From the IMG/VR virus record IMGVR_UViG_3300047509_000103, positions 16,858 through 80,857 of that record: DNA of 64,000 nt; one strand, given 5' to 3'. The stretch is from a virus. Below the pieces are notes generated by a model, which worked only from the letters and a program-made list of their open reading frames with translations, had not been told where the DNA came from and made no database searches. Positions within the stretch are counted from its first letter, which is position 1. Each line of letters opens with the position of its first letter. This document shows positions 19,896-63,643 of this stretch, piece by piece. Both the position numbers and the translations under genes were made by a program.

Positions 19896-20728
19896 CCACA
19901 GCGGCAGAGTACGCATGCCTTGCCGGTTACGCGGAAGCGATGAATGCGGCAGGCTTGTTGGCGCCACCGATCGACACGCGCGCGAACGATTGGCAAATCG
20001 TCGGCTATATCACCGCCCAGAACGCGCTGTTCAACCTGCAGCGCGTTGGCGTCGGCCAGCGCGTGTTCTTCGGTTTCCACGCGTTCAGAATGTCCGATCC
20101 AAGAGAGCACGTCGTCGTCATACGCGGCACCGAGAGCGCGATCGAATGGATAGAGGACGCCGACGCGATACTGGCGCCGGGACCGCCCATCGGGTTAGTG
20201 CATCGTGGTTTCTGGAGCATCTACCAGAGCGCGCGATACTTCTCGCACGGCGCGCTTGGTGATGGCTTGCTCGCCGCGCAGGGCATCACCGCAGCAATGC
20301 CGATCGGCGCATCGGTGACATTCATCGGTCACAGCCTAGGCGGACCAATAGCTACATACATGGTACATGACACCGCGCGTATTCCATTCGCCCCGCGGCA
20401 GCGTGAATTCTCTCTCGGTGCTGTGCTGTTCGCGAGCCCGCGCCCAGGCGACCGTGCCTACGTCGAGAACTTCGACGAGGTGGTCGGCAAGCTGAACTAT
20501 TCATGTTACGCATACGAACGCGACCGCGTTCCGCACTTGCCGGTCTGGATTCCGACGCTGCCGTTCAAGTCACTGCTTGGCACGACATGGATCAAGCCAT
20601 CGCAGTCGCAGGCAATCATCAGCGATACGCCTGGGTGCTGCCATGCAGCCACGTCTTACGCACGAATGCTTGATTATGCTAGTGCCGACGGCACAAATAG
20701 CTGTGTATTGGGACCGAGACCCAGCTGA
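19892..20728 (+). CDS. class 3 lipase (alpha/beta hydrolase)
   Basis: IRGT, VHRGF, GHSLGG, FASPRPGD, DRVPHLP, C-terminal H. Confidence 0.9.
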   Translation: MTTAAEYACLAGYAEAMNAAGLLAPPIDTRANDWQIVGYITAQNALFNLQRVGVGQRVFFGFHAFRMSDPREHVVVIRGTESAIEWIEDADAILAPGPPIGLVHRGFWSIYQSARYFSHGALGDGLLAAQGITAAMPIGASVTFIGHSLGGPIATYMVHDTARIPFAPRQREFSLGAVLFASPRPGDRAYVENFDEVVGKLNYSCYAYERDRVPHLPVWIPTLPFKSLLGTTWIKPSQSQAIISDTPGCCHAATSYARMLDYASADGTNSCVLGPRPS

Positions 20729-21210
20729 TGTTCGACAAGATCGCTTGGCAGCGCCAATGGCGCGCTGAGAATAAAGAACGCAACACCGGATATCACATTG
20801 CCGCTTACAGGCGCGATCCGGAAAAGCACAAAGCAGCGCACAACAAATGGCGCGATGCGAACGTGCAAAAAGCGAATGACGCGACATCGCAATGGCGTGG
20901 CAGGAACAAGGAAAAACTGCTCGCTTACTCGCGCGACTACGCTGCTAGAAATAGAGCAAGCCGTGCCGCGAATCAAGCGAAGCGTCGCGCTTTGAAGCTA
21001 TTGGCAACACCGCTGTGGGCAGACCACGAGTTGATTGAACTCATCTATGCCGAGGCTGCGCATCGTGGCTTGGAAGTTGATCACGTGATACCGCTTCAAG
21101 GCAAGACTGTTTGTGGCTTGCACGTGCATACGAACATGCAATTGCTCAGTGCTGGCGAGAATTACAGCAAGCGCAACAAGTACCCGTATCCATCAAGGAT
21201 TCCACTATGA
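20728..21210 (+). CDS. HNH endonuclease
   Basis: ATPLWAD..EVDHVIPL.G..VCGLHV..N..N..K.N. Confidence 0.88.
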   Translation: MFDKIAWQRQWRAENKERNTGYHIAAYRRDPEKHKAAHNKWRDANVQKANDATSQWRGRNKEKLLAYSRDYAARNRASRAANQAKRRALKLLATPLWADHELIELIYAEAAHRGLEVDHVIPLQGKTVCGLHVHTNMQLLSAGENYSKRNKYPYPSRIPL

Positions 21211-59426: not shown

Positions 59427-59617
59427 GCTATTGCTTCGAGTTGGTCGGCGGTGAAGCTAATATCATCGCTAAATCGTGCTTCAGCTTCGTTTGTTGACCA
59501 TGCAAAATAAACTTCGTCGCTAGGCTCGTGCACGTAGGAAAGGTGGTCACCGTACAAGCCGAACATGAATATTGGTTCGAGTAATTCTCTGGCGCGCTGT
59601 TCGTCCATTGTAGTCAC
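59396..59617 (-). CDS. hypothetical protein
   Basis: 'FTADQLEAIAWWMRN'. Confidence 0.6.
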   Translation of the reverse strand: MTTMDEQRARELLEPIFMFGLYGDHLSYVHEPSDEVYFAWSTNEAEARFSDDISFTADQLEAIAWWMRNKAKP

Positions 59618-59895
59618 CCGAGGTACCGCGCTAGGTGCTTGTCGATCACGTCACTCAGATGTAGCGAAGTCGGCCAATCGTTGTCGCCGTGGTGTTCGCA
59701 CACCTGGCGTAATGTGGCGATCGCCGCTTCACGTTCGAGTACCCATGCCACCTTGCCCGTTTCCGGATCGGTGTACCCAAGGCGTTGTATACAGTGTTGC
59801 AACATTGAGAGCGTCGCCGCGCGACCGCCTTGCTCGTAGATGCACTCTTCCTGCTCGGTCATAAGCGTCGATCCTAAAGTAGTTCTGGTTTCCAT
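59614..59895 (-). CDS. hypothetical protein
   Basis: 'LRQVCEHHGDNDW..LHLSDVIDKHL'. Confidence 0.65.
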   Translation of the reverse strand: METRTTLGSTLMTEQEECIYEQGGRAATLSMLQHCIQRLGYTDPETGKVAWVLEREAAIATLRQVCEHHGDNDWPTSLHLSDVIDKHLARYLG

Positions 59896-60494
59896 GCGTT
59901 GCGCTTCACGTGGTTTTCGTCATGCACTATGACACGCATGTTGTTCTCTACGTGGAGCCCGCAGACCAGCGGATGGATTAGTGGAATGACGTGGTCGACC
60001 TCGTGCCGCGCGCCAGTCTGTTGTGAAAGTTCGCGCGCCAGTACATAGAGCGCCCGTATAGCTTTGCTGTCCGCCCAAGGTGTTTTCTTTGCTTGGTTTC
60101 GTCTCTGCCGACGGCCATCCGCATCAAGTTTGGATCGCTCTTGCCGCTGCGCCCATCCGTTAAACCGCGTTGAATTTTCTTGTTGTATCTGCTGCCTGAC
60201 GTCCAAGTTTTGAATTGCTTCTACCACACGATACAGATCAGCCAACGTGGCGGTTGCTGACGCAATGCGAATTCTCTTTGGGCGGTCATCTACAACGCGT
60301 GAGTCGGCCATCGTGAGATAGCCAGGCATTACGGTGTACCAATGCTTTGAACGGCGATCCCAGTAGCACCACTTTGGGATCTGACGCTGATCGATGTGCG
60401 CCGGCAGCGTGCTGTTGATTTTGCGTGGCCTACCGCGCCCGGCACCAAGCAGTTTTTCAGGCGGTTCGCTCCGTAAAACTGACGGTTGTTTCAT
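59874..60494 (-). CDS. fusion of integrase-N-terminal-like domain and HNH endonuclease (start uncertain)
   Basis: GRPRKINSTLPAHID..PKWCYWD..WYT..RIA..ATLADL matches the integrase N-terminus; TPWAD..EVDHVIPL..VCGLHV..N. Confidence 0.82.
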   Translation of the reverse strand: MKQPSVLRSEPPEKLLGAGRGRPRKINSTLPAHIDQRQIPKWCYWDRRSKHWYTVMPGYLTMADSRVVDDRPKRIRIASATATLADLYRVVEAIQNLDVRQQIQQENSTRFNGWAQRQERSKLDADGRRQRRNQAKKTPWADSKAIRALYVLARELSQQTGARHEVDHVIPLIHPLVCGLHVENNMRVIVHDENHVKRNAWKPELL

Positions 60495-60711
60495 GCGTTT
60501 ATATCCATGAAGATTGAAATGTCCGTAAAATGGCAAGTTTTCAATGTATTGAAATTATAATCTTTTTTGACTTACCGCAAGGGACTTAAAATCCCTCGGC
60601 CCTAATCGGCCATGCCGGTTCGAGTCCGGCCCCGGGCATTCACAATCAAAGGGTTAGCGTGGCGCAACGCCGCGCGCTGCAACTGACCCGTAAAAATCAC
60701 CGTAAAAATCA
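60471..60711. other. attP region with arm-type repeats and IHF box
   Basis: CCGTAAAA at 60471, 60523, 60688, 60700; AATCAAAGGGTTA (WATCAR-N4-TTR) at 60644-60656. Confidence 0.75.
60576..60638 (+). other. attP core: 3' portion of tRNA-Leu(TAA)
   Basis: AGGGA-CTTAAAA-TCCCT anticodon arm, long variable arm, GCCGG-TTCGAGT-CCGGC T arm; D arm and 5' acceptor strand absent. Confidence 0.9.
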
Positions 60712-60720
60712 CTTCTTCGG

Positions 60721-60948
60721 TCAGGGCTTGCTTTCCTCGCCATCCCGGTCCGTGAATTCCTGACCTATTTGTCCCGGCATGCGGCACCATTCGATCCATT
60801 CTCCAGTTTTCACCCATTGCCGCTGGATGACCCATTCGCAACGTTCGAGATCCAGAGAGACGCGCAGGTTTGCGAATACGGTCGGGCCATAGAGTTTGTC
60901 AATAATGACAACATCGTCCGGTCCGATTTCAATTATGTGCTCGGTCAT
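60721..60948 (-). CDS. hypothetical protein
   Basis: ORF directly downstream of int. Confidence 0.6.
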   Translation of the reverse strand: MTEHIIEIGPDDVVIIDKLYGPTVFANLRVSLDLERCEWVIQRQWVKTGEWIEWCRMPGQIGQEFTDRDGEESKP

Positions 60949-60957
60949 ATCACCATC

Positions 60958-62091
60958 TCACTCTCCAGCCGGGTTCACAAGTGGAACAGTAAAATCGTAT
61001 ACATCCATCATCGCATCAGTGACATGCCCGCTTGCTTCCTTCCGATCGGCGCGTGTGCCGACTGTGTCGGTGACACCACGGCGCTTGAGCGGATGCAACG
61101 AGAAGCGTTGCTCGGCAGTGATAACACCCTCAGCGATAGCCAGCTTGATCGCATGCTGCCACGCGCTGTCGAACGTACCCTTGCGCAATGCTTTGCCATC
61201 AATGCCCACCAGCAGTGGCCTGTCTTCGGCGCGGATCGGCACCGGCGTGCGGCAACGCGCCCAGGTGGATTCACGCAGTGCGATCGCTGCATCCCACGCG
61301 GCGCGTAGTCGCGGCGACCAGCGCACGCAATTGTCACGGCTGCCCTTGCGCCGATTCGTCACCACGCCGTCGGTGGTGGCGTTCGCATCAGTGAGCGTCA
61401 GCACCTCGATGCCGCGCAGCCGGCACATGAAGGCAAACTCCATTGCCAGCCACAGGTACGGTGCGACGGCGCCGGCGCGGCGCAGCGTGACGCCAGCGCG
61501 CTGCTGGAAGAACTGCAGCACCGCCATCACGGCGACAGGCTCTGGCAGGATCCGCCGCTTGCGTTCCTTGGCCTGGCGCACGCCCTTGCACGGGTTGTGG
61601 TTGCACTTGCCGTTGCGCACGCCCCAGGCGAGCGACCGGCGCAGGTAGCGCAGCAGGTGGTTCGCCTTGGTCGGCGTGGTCTTCGCGATTGAATTGACCA
61701 GTACCTGCATCATTGGCACCGACATGCGCGCCACGTTCAGCGAGGTCAACGTGCCGGCCTTGGTCTTGAATGCGGTGGCGATCGCACGCTGTTTTTCGTA
61801 GCCCGCGCGCGTGCTCGGCGCGAGCTCGCGGAATTCGACATCGTCGTGAAACGCGGCGAGCACGTAGCCCAAGCAGGTGTGATCAACGCCGGCAATGCTT
61901 TCCAGGATGGAGTGCAGATCGGCGAGCGTTGCTTCCGGACCAGCTATGCGCTGCCGGCGCGGCTTCGGATAGGTGTGGATTGTGTACCAGACGCGATCAC
62001 GCCCGTCCCAATAGCAGCGCTTCGGCAGCCGCCGCGGATCCACGCGGGCCGGCATGCTCGAATCCAGAACGCGCGGGCGGCCGCGGCTCAA
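60958..62091 (-). CDS. int: tyrosine integrase
   Basis: catalytic R (RLRGIE), K (RRKGS), HPLKRR, GH, Y; TTG start overlapping the xis stop. Confidence 0.92.
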   Translation of the reverse strand: MSRGRPRVLDSSMPARVDPRRLPKRCYWDGRDRVWYTIHTYPKPRRQRIAGPEATLADLHSILESIAGVDHTCLGYVLAAFHDDVEFRELAPSTRAGYEKQRAIATAFKTKAGTLTSLNVARMSVPMMQVLVNSIAKTTPTKANHLLRYLRRSLAWGVRNGKCNHNPCKGVRQAKERKRRILPEPVAVMAVLQFFQQRAGVTLRRAGAVAPYLWLAMEFAFMCRLRGIEVLTLTDANATTDGVVTNRRKGSRDNCVRWSPRLRAAWDAAIALRESTWARCRTPVPIRAEDRPLLVGIDGKALRKGTFDSAWQHAIKLAIAEGVITAEQRFSLHPLKRRGVTDTVGTRADRKEASGHVTDAMMDVYDFTVPLVNPAGE

Positions 62092-62324
62092 CGGCAAATT
62101 TCCGGTGAGTACGCCTCGGCGCTGCCGGTCACCACGACGCGCCCGCCCGCCTGGTTTATCAGATCGATTGTCGTCCAAGGTTTCCCCGCCTTGCCGATGA
62201 ACACCGTGATGCCCTGCTTGCGAAGGTTGCGCACCACGTCGCCGGCGCGTTCAAGGCCGGTGATGCTGCACAACTCTTCGAATGGGACGAGCGCGGTCAT
62301 AGCAGGGAATTGGATGCTCAGCAA
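62088..62324 (-). CDS. putative excisionase (DUF4224-like)
   Basis: small protein 'EELCSITG..LRKQGI..GKPWTT' directly upstream of int. Confidence 0.7.
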   Translation of the reverse strand: MLSIQFPAMTALVPFEELCSITGLERAGDVVRNLRKQGITVFIGKAGKPWTTIDLINQAGGRVVVTGSAEAYSPEICR

Positions 62325-63643
62325 GGCTCGGAAGTGGAAGGTGGGGTAGATCCATTCGTCACGAGTTCACAACCCGCCTTAGCCAGATCGACCACCCGAC
62401 ACGGTATTGTGATGCCGCCAAGCTTCGGATCGCAGCGATCCACATTGCACGGCCGGTTGTGCGTGTTGCACCAGTACCGTATCCCCTGATTCGCCGATAG
62501 CGCGCTTGGATTCTTGATCGGCCACAGTTGAAACGCTGTCGGCGTGCATTGGCATCGCGCAGGAATCGACGTAGCAAGTGGCAGTCGCACCACACGCAGA
62601 CAGGACGTGCAGCAATACCAGCGGCCATCCGTCGTCGCAGCCTGAGCCGATAGCGCGGCTTGGAGGGCGGTGCGCAAGAACACATCGTTGCAGTAAACTT
62701 CATCAAGATCATCGGCCGCTGCGTTGTAAGCGATGGCCGCACGGTCTACCATGTCATCCGTCACCACACGATCTACCGTGGCAGGGCAGTATGGCTTCAA
62801 CTTTGGATCAGCGGTGTGCGCAACTGTGCCGCCTTCGCGCAAAAATCGCGCATCAGCGTCATCCTGCGATTTGTCTTCAGGTTCCAAAAGCACTCTATTC
62901 GATACGGCCGTGGTGCTTAGGTAGTGCTCGCAAAGTGCGGCTACGTTGTAGGCGTCAGTCCGCCCGATAACTAGCTCTTGTCCGCCTTTGTCACGCACGA
63001 GCAAAAATCGCTCAAGAATGCGCTCAACTTGGTCGCGCGTCAGTTCACTCACTCCAACTACTGGCGAACTGTCAATTGCTGGCGGATTAGTAGTTGCGGC
63101 TTTGATGCGCTCGAATCTTCCGTCCAGCATTTCAATGTCCGCGCGAACGAAACACTTGCCATCTTCGGCGCGGTAAACGTAAGCAGGTTGCATCGTCTTT
63201 TCGATAAAGCAGCGCGTCTCAATTTTGTAGACGCCGCCGGTTTTTTTGTGGCGCACAAAATCGCCGGGAGCGAACTCGTTGTAGCCAGTTAGCAATACCG
63301 CCGGTTCTGTTTCCCATTCGATAGTAAGGCCGAATGATTCAAGCGCCTTACCCATGCAAACGTACTGCGCATCGGCTTGCTGCATGGACTGATCGTTGTA
63401 GGCGGTCACGGCCTTATCCAAATCTGCGCGACTCACCATCCATTCGTCGGCGTCCGGCCCATCGGTCTTTGGGGCGGACGGAGGTTCACCTGCGTAAGCG
63501 CACGGCCAGGGCACGCCACAGACGACGCAGCAGCCATGCAGCTTACCGTTCGCCGGATCATGTTCACTACCACAGCAGGCGCGGTGCGCTATCAGTTGCG
63601 CTAGTCGCTCGGCGCTGACAATCGGCTGGAATGCGTCGCTCAT
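62318..63643 (-). CDS. mosaic multi-module protein including DUF1653-like domain
   Basis: 'RHKKTGGVY..VYRAEDG..FVR..GRF'; several Cys clusters. Confidence 0.7.
   Translation of the reverse strand: MSDAFQPIVSAERLAQLIAHRACCGSEHDPANGKLHGCCVVCGVPWPCAYAGEPPSAPKTDGPDADEWMVSRADLDKAVTAYNDQSMQQADAQYVCMGKALESFGLTIEWETEPAVLLTGYNEFAPGDFVRHKKTGGVYKIETRCFIEKTMQPAYVYRAEDGKCFVRADIEMLDGRFERIKAATTNPPAIDSSPVVGVSELTRDQVERILERFLLVRDKGGQELVIGRTDAYNVAALCEHYLSTTAVSNRVLLEPEDKSQDDADARFLREGGTVAHTADPKLKPYCPATVDRVVTDDMVDRAAIAYNAAADDLDEVYCNDVFLRTALQAALSAQAATTDGRWYCCTSCLRVVRLPLATSIPARCQCTPTAFQLWPIKNPSALSANQGIRYWCNTHNRPCNVDRCDPKLGGITIPCRVVDLAKAGCELVTNGSTPPSTSEPC

Follow-up and report, generated by a model that had tools for sequence, protein, structure and literature searches.

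What might a phage gain from a protein that joins the N-terminal domain of an integrase to a nuclease domain, when the gene for that protein lies beside its own attachment site (attP)? The question is raised by a minus-strand gene in a 64 kb stretch of soil phage DNA (hereafter the window), which comprises bases 16858-80857 of the 80,857-bp IMG/VR virus record IMGVR_UViG_3300047509_000103, rated approximately 93% complete. An initial annotation, made from the sequence alone, described the product (hereafter P0001) as the N-terminus of a tyrosine integrase joined to an HNH nuclease domain that takes the place of the core-binding and catalytic domains. Both parts of this description hold. Residues 30-112 of P0001, in the numbering of the 220-amino-acid (aa) open reading frame (ORF), align with residues 28-99 of the integrase encoded in the window (Int, gene int) with 42% identity over 83 columns (E 7e-19), and the homology stops just after the helix of this region, exactly where the core-binding domain of integrases begins; what follows is an HNH module with intact catalytic residues. 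The ORF spans 59874-60536(-) and encodes 220 aa if a TTG start at 60536 is used, but sequence comparison makes the ATG at 60494 the likelier start, giving 206 aa, because both full-length relatives described below align from there. In an alignment with 15-16 integrase N-domains, the N-domain of P0001 keeps all 11 invariant columns. No Pfam, NCBIfam or PADLOC model matches P0001, and the combination of an integrase arm-binding domain with an HNH domain is apparently rare and undescribed.

The C-terminal part of P0001 matches phrog_26577 (E 1e-20) and phrog_1035, annotated as "endonuclease VII" (E 7e-5). The profile of its family aligns the motif region with the HNH domain of FnCas9 (E 0.009), placing D167-H168, N185 and N194 against the D-H, N and N of that nuclease. 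H168 is invariant and D167, N185 and N194 are more than 90% conserved in 148 family members; P0001 has all four. No Pfam or NCBIfam HNH model was matched by P0001, and two members of the family reach PF01844 below the cut-off; by these comparisons the HNH family is a divergent one. It is also modular: other members carry cysteine-rich (zinc-ribbon-like) N-terminal parts or an Xis-type HTH_17 domain. One of them, a 169-aa protein from Logan (P0239), has an N-terminal HTH_17 of the excisionase/AlpA type (E 7e-11), another DNA-binding head of a recombination type. The initial annotation had likened the HNH domain of the fusion to that of the ORF at 20728-21210, and a similarity is indeed present (45% identity over 65 aa, E 7e-13), but the two are not close copies. 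They are not sisters in the HNH tree, which rules out a recent duplication of this terminase-linked gene as the source. A further candidate fusion, L155, proved to be an HNH-only protein.

Such fusions are very rare. When 1.84 billion representatives were searched exhaustively with HMMER, 15,415 HNH relatives were returned, but only two of them were full length, namely, P0056 (186 aa, E 3e-32) and P0057 (164 aa, E 4e-27), both from Logan assemblies (contigs of 13.7 and 37.6 kb, respectively). Among 5.8 billion clusters, a profile search recovered P0001 and these two, after which the score falls from 264 to 105 bits. A hidden Markov model (HMM) of the N-domain matched only P0001, P0056 and P0057 among 202 family members, and each of the three is a singleton from one or two contigs. 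Scans with exact peptide patterns yielded no further fused form in IMG/VR, GTDB genomes or JGI metagenomes, where only integrases or HNH-only proteins were met; tblastn found none in 50,697 GenBank phages, and a search limited to longer proteins with the N-domain returned one integrase only. The occurrence is thus patchy, a trait of homing endonuclease genes, since the fusion gene is missing from relatives whose integrase family and arm repeats (described below) are the same. The three fusions are approximately 40% identical to one another and all keep both domains, the junction and the catalytic residues. The initial annotation had named a one-off, untranslated fusion with no homologues as a case that would speak against its reading; two diverged full-length relatives were found instead, and the conservation of both domains and the junction among three such divergent sequences argues against an accidental, untranslated fusion.

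An AlphaFold model of P0001 built from the alignment had a mean predicted local distance difference test score (pLDDT) of 79. Its strands fall at residues 43-46, 51-56 and 73-78, and they are followed by a long helix (84-135) and by the HNH (143-196). When the N-domain was modeled alone and compared with 48,161 chains by VIA, the top match was the arm-binding domain of the HPI integrase (3jtz_A; Z 4.7, root-mean-square deviation 3.8, 63 of 77 residues). Further matches were lambda Int (1z1b, Z 3.9, rank 4; 2wcc, Z 3.8, rank 5), an AP2 domain (6sy0, Z 3.5, rank 9) and Tn916 Int (1bb8, Z 3.1, rank 23). The list for the whole model was filled with coiled coils owing to the long helix. Foldseek gave no match at an E-value of 0.001 or better, and the N-domain profile, run against PDB sequences, had chance-level matches to LRP6 only and did not reach the solved arm-domain structures. 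A lookup in a protein atlas, which we treat as a lead only, placed Integrase_DNA, Arm-DNA-bind_1 and whole integrases among the nearest named clusters. The atlas also offered a viral 181-aa cluster with DUF6538 (score 0.78), a domain that no paper mentions. Taken together, the models are suggestive of an arm-binding/AP2 fold for the N-domain.

The two parts of the fusion differ in their history. The HNH parts of the three fusions form one clade, with a Shimodaira-Hasegawa-like approximate likelihood ratio test (SH-aLRT) value of 97 in a tree of 203 rows and with bootstrap 99 and SH-aLRT 85 in a tree of 56 rows, and P0056 and P0057 are sisters. By contrast, a 98/98 branch of the N-domain tree unites P0001 and P0057 with Int of the window and the integrases of loci L006, L012, L014 and L016, apart from P0056 and the remaining integrases. 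A constraint that groups the N-domains of the three fusions costs 12 log-likelihood units (approximately unbiased (AU) test, p 0.04). The disagreement between the trees is moderate evidence for one or more replacements of the DNA-binding head since the origin of the HNH lineage, or for more than one origin of the fusion. The head of the window's fusion lies in the same integrase subclade as the resident Int.

Between the fusion gene and int lies a 63-nt segment, 60576-60638(+), that corresponds to the anticodon stem, long variable arm, T arm and discriminator base of tRNA-Leu(UAA), with the 5' half missing; ARAGORN and Rfam detected no whole tRNA there. Fifty IMG/VR loci have the T-arm and acceptor sequence in common with this core piece; most of them are complete tRNA-Leu genes, and they align with it. 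Two soil metagenome runs contain contigs with other tRNA-Leu genes, and these match the phage over the core only; one loose end before the core reads like a tRNA 5' half, and in others CCA follows 60638. These comparisons argue that the attP is real and lies, as the initial annotation had it, between int and a fusion gene downstream of it on the same strand, so that integration would separate the two genes. A metagenome contig of 7057 bp from the probable source sample is identical to the window across 59535-62400 without a difference, which shows that the sampled DNA runs unbroken through the fusion gene, core and int. Three 151-bp contigs from a second soil metagenome run, from a different study, are identical to the phage within 60704-61429 (the attP-int region); the phage or a near twin thus occurs in more than one sample.

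The octamer CCGTAAAA occurs four times in the 64 kb, all on the plus strand and within 237 bp, against approximately 0.84 expected by chance. The copies flank the core, two on each side, and those on the fusion side (60471 and 60523) overlap the 5' end of the gene, as had been noted initially: the former falls in codons 6-8 and the latter 29-36 nt upstream of the ATG. On the int strand, the tandem TTTTACGG-N4-TTTTACGG directly follows the int stop codon in loci L016 and L020, and with two mismatches or fewer it is found further downstream of int in L026, L036, L044, L045 and L046 (estimated chance matches, approximately 0.02 per locus). The integrases of these seven repeat-bearing relatives are only 38-56% identical to Int across the N-domain. 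In L016, an integrated relative, a complete tRNA-Leu(UAA) gene comes after the repeats, whereas in L020 the same repeats stand beside an apparent tRNA-Lys gene (read by eye). The repeat thus tracks the integrase family rather than the core, and because the same tandem follows int in seven related loci, we regard the CCGTAAAA/TTTTACGG repeats as arm-type sites of this integrase family. In the N-domain alignment, the fusion is 50% identical to Int and 47% identical to the integrase of L016, values that fall inside the 38-56% range; we therefore infer that its N-domain reads, and would bind, the same TTTTACGG repeats. Two further loci deserve mention in their own right. At L150:11242-11272, three CCGTAA(A/T)(A/T) repeats, oriented opposite to those of the window, lie in a prophage next to the 3' end of a complete tRNA-Leu(UAA) gene, and one 85 kb viral contig (IMGVR_UViG_3300011806_000001; L024 and L049) carries two integrases of this family approximately 38 kb apart.

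Expression of the fusion gene may be coupled to the state of the phage DNA. No minus-strand terminator was predicted between int and the fusion gene, so int transcripts could run across attP into the fusion gene, though only while the phage DNA is circular. Because two arm repeats sit on its start region, the fusion gene is probably repressed by Int or by its own product when either occupies the repeats at 60471 and 60523. A promoter scan called no site for the gene. By eye, a perfect TATAAT can be read at 60554-60559(-), between the att core and the ATG; its poor -35 element would fall inside the tRNA-like core.

We propose that P0001 is a chimeric, arm-site-directed HNH endonuclease with a selfish or competitive role at int-attP, which is the most likely explanation in our judgment and to which we assign about an even chance. 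The initial annotation had likewise inferred an att-arm-targeted nuclease, a reading that is partly supported here. An HNH module with interchangeable N-terminal DNA-binding parts would, in the fusion lineage, have received the arm-binding domain of a tyrosine integrase. The protein would dock on the TTTTACGG arm-type repeats that the integrase family uses on attP, and the docked HNH would then nick or cut nearby DNA. It would attack the attachment regions of related elements (phages, prophages or satellites) that use the same integrase family, and the outcome would be either the exclusion of rivals or, in the manner of homing endonucleases, recombination by which the adjoining int-attP cassette spreads. 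The biological role is the least certain step of this mechanism. Two observations favor conflict or homing over a part in the phage's own recombination: the HNH residues are strictly conserved, and relatives with the same integrase and repeats lack the gene.

Several points weigh against the proposed endonuclease. The main one is self-targeting: since the presumed target repeats also stand in the phage's own attP, the protein would need some way of sparing it. Only three members were found, each seen once, which indicates that the gene type is not widespread, and linkage of a fusion gene to attP was seen for the phage of the window alone. The fold Z-scores are low (<5) and the Foldseek E-values exceed 0.1, so the argument for an arm-binding N-domain is carried by sequence homology to integrase N-termini. 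Residues 171-181 in the HNH loop have a pLDDT below 50. The AU test is borderline at p 0.04, with few columns and with the fusion rows on long branches.

Four other explanations have to be weighed. It is unlikely, in our view, that P0001 is an accessory factor of the phage's own integration and excision, in which the N-domain competes with Int or bridges it at the arm sites, as a directionality factor or anti-integrase would, and the HNH nicks attP to relax or process it, or is vestigial. Such a factor would suit an arm-binding domain common to Int and the fusion, a gene placed on the P-arm repeats and co-transcription with int that is possible only in the circular state; some members of the HNH family bear the excisionase-type HTH_17, and no clear excisionase was found, the only candidate being the weak DUF4224 match at 62088-62324. 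However, a pure DNA-binding role needs no catalytic residues, and all three fusions conserve them fully; moreover, the relatives that have the same integrase family and arm repeats without the gene show that it is dispensable for recombination. We consider it somewhat less likely again that the gene serves defense from the prophage end, being expressed in the lysogen from its own promoter to cut incoming phages with the same arm repeats (superinfection exclusion). Accessory genes are often found at the end of a prophage, where integration would indeed leave the fusion gene; a TATAAT hexamer stands between core and ATG, and the arm repeat is common to many relatives with different cores, but no PADLOC model matched, the promoter scan was negative there and the prophage's own attL and attR would retain the repeats. 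This explanation also overlaps that of an arm-site-directed endonuclease in competition with related elements, from which it differs mainly in timing.

The rarity of the fusion, with three singletons and none in the GenBank phages or in the IMG/VR, GTDB and JGI pattern scans, would be expected of a non-functional relic, that is, of a decayed second integrase gene that was joined in frame to an HNH gene by chance. We nevertheless regard a relic as improbable, because three sequences at approximately 40% identity keep the same junction, both domains and every catalytic and family-invariant residue, and because both domains fold with confidence in the models. It is very improbable that P0001 is a second packaging-helper HNH of the HK97 gp74 type, working with terminase at the genome ends. 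Its HNH belongs to the same family as the ORF at 20728-21210, just upstream of the terminase genes, yet that copy already fills the terminase-linked position and is no sister of the fusion's HNH, whereas the fusion gene is part of the int module, 37 kb distant and on the opposite strand, and encodes an integrase DNA-binding domain. An arm-site-directed endonuclease with a competitive role is the reading that we retain.

A wider possibility, which we put forward tentatively and hold to be rather doubtful, is that integrative elements carry an undescribed class of att-site-directed nucleases that re-acquire integrase heads as the integrases diverge, cut the att arms of rivals that rely on the same integrase family or move int-attP cassettes between phages, and have their expression tied to the circular state by read-through from int. 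Should P0001 indeed cut at arm-type sites, attachment sites would be targets in the conflicts among phages, prophages and satellites, beyond their part as recombination substrates, and the fusion would be a natural case of a nuclease retargeted by a swapped-in DNA-reading head of an integrase. This could help explain the free exchange of int-attP modules between phages, and the two domains would make a small, programmable-looking pair for binding and cutting.

The coordinates of the locus and of the other features of the window are collected in Table 1. The run of minus-strand genes that includes the fusion gene comes after a plus-strand packaging and structural block. The integrase matches phrog_1 (integrase, E 7e-20), phrog_14425 (E 3e-56) and an XerC model (E 2e-7). 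Related integrases begin at an M-x-x-GRPR (RGRPR) motif, and the int ORF of the window runs approximately 30 codons further upstream from a TTG; by this comparison the annotated start at 62178 may be too early and the true start further downstream. The 78-aa ORF that overlaps the start of int has a DUF4224 match (E 0.0018) below the cut-off and may encode an excisionase-like partner of int. The 75-aa ORF separates the int stop codon from the arm repeats, which in L016 and L020 come directly after int.

Table 1 Features of the attP locus and of the remainder of the window, in window coordinates
Feature	Position	Strand	Remarks
Fusion gene, protein P0001	59874-60494	-	206 aa from ATG 60494
Arm-binding-type N-domain, residues 17-101 of 206-aa P0001	60192-60446	-	RGRPR motif; three β-strands and one helix in model
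HNH module, residues ~104-206 of P0001	59877-60185	-	phrog match, family profile
ββα-metal motif of P0001, residues 163-199	59898-60008	-	D167, H168, N185, N194
Repeat CCGTAAAA (TTTTACGG on gene strand)	60471-60478	+	Inside codons 6-8 of fusion gene
Repeat CCGTAAAA	60523-60530	+	29-36 nt upstream of fusion gene's ATG
attP core, 3' 63 nt of tRNA-Leu(UAA) gene	60576-60638	+	Sequence comparison
Two tandem CCGTAAAA repeats (60688, 60700), 12 bp apart	60688-60707	+	int side of core
75-aa ORF between int and attP	60721-60948	-	Without family match
Tyrosine integrase (int), 406 aa from TTG	60958-62178	-	phrog_1, phrog_14425, XerC model
78-aa ORF overlapping int start	62088-62324	-	Weak DUF4224 match
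Second HNH, same family as fusion's HNH	20728-21210	+	1.3 kb upstream of genes for small and large terminase and portal
Small terminase	22509	+	Packaging/structural block
Large terminase	23063	+	Packaging/structural block
Portal	24527	+	Packaging/structural block
Major head protein	29865	+	Packaging/structural block
3093-aa protein	ends 58845	+	Packaging/structural block

The N-domain of the fusion may have the fold of the arm-binding domains of integrases, such as those of lambda Int (residues 1-64; 2wcc/1z1b), the HPI integrase (3jtz) and Tn916 Int (1bb8), as its model has three strands and a helix; like them, it has an N-terminal position and direct repeats that flank a core, and it is homologous in sequence to the N-termini of integrases of 380-430 aa. 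Unlike these, it is detached from core-binding and catalytic domains, and its profiles miss the solved structures and the Pfam arm-domain families. AP2 domains and integrase N-domains have been treated as one superfamily (PMC1702500), and HNH with AP2 is an established architecture of homing endonucleases (PMC5714182, PMC10448857). The AP2-HNH homing endonucleases (the HNH_3/I-HmuI group and the IPA-HNH genes of ICP1) are like the fusion in combining an HNH with a DNA-binding domain of the AP2/integrase superfamily in free-standing, modular phage genes (PMC5714182, PMC10448857, PMC1702500). In these enzymes, however, an N-terminal HNH precedes a C-terminal AP2 domain, the reverse of the order in the fusion; the HNH is of the HNH_3 type, and the AP2 domain is no near copy of the arm domain of a working integrase, whereas the N-domain of the fusion is 40-50% identical to real integrase N-termini and its gene abuts attP. 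The reversed order, the different HNH family and the lack of a match of P0001 to the Pfam AP2 or HNH_3 models place the fusion outside the AP2-HNH (HNH_3) group, and the resemblance is one of superfamily only.

Adi of phage ICP1 shows that attP can be a point of nucleolytic attack between mobile elements (PMC9638900). There, too, the attP of an integrative element is attacked in a conflict of mobile elements, but Adi is itself no nuclease and turns a serine recombinase into one, whereas the fusion has a built-in nuclease domain. A full-text literature search for arm-type, HNH and integrase together returned no such fusion, as judged by title and abstract. The initial statement that no example had been described thus needs qualification: the exact combination is apparently undescribed, but pairings of AP2/integrase-type domains with HNH, alike at the superfamily level, are known, as are chimeras with the target's own domain. 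Of the latter, Odn (Gp88) of the Vibrio phage ICP1 is by analogy the functionally nearest case, a chimeric nuclease that took the origin-binding domain of a satellite and cuts the satellite's origin (PMC8263062). As proposed here for the fusion, its targeting was gained by domain shuffling from the DNA-binding protein of another element, and it cuts at the repeats of that protein. Odn pairs RepA_N with T5orf172 against a satellite origin and has been proven experimentally, whereas the fusion, known from its sequence, pairs an integrase arm domain with HNH against presumed att arm repeats and has a donor-like integrase in the same genome. With its domain make-up and a plausible mechanism, the fusion gene can be placed among the modular genes of phages that join a DNA-binding domain to a nuclease.

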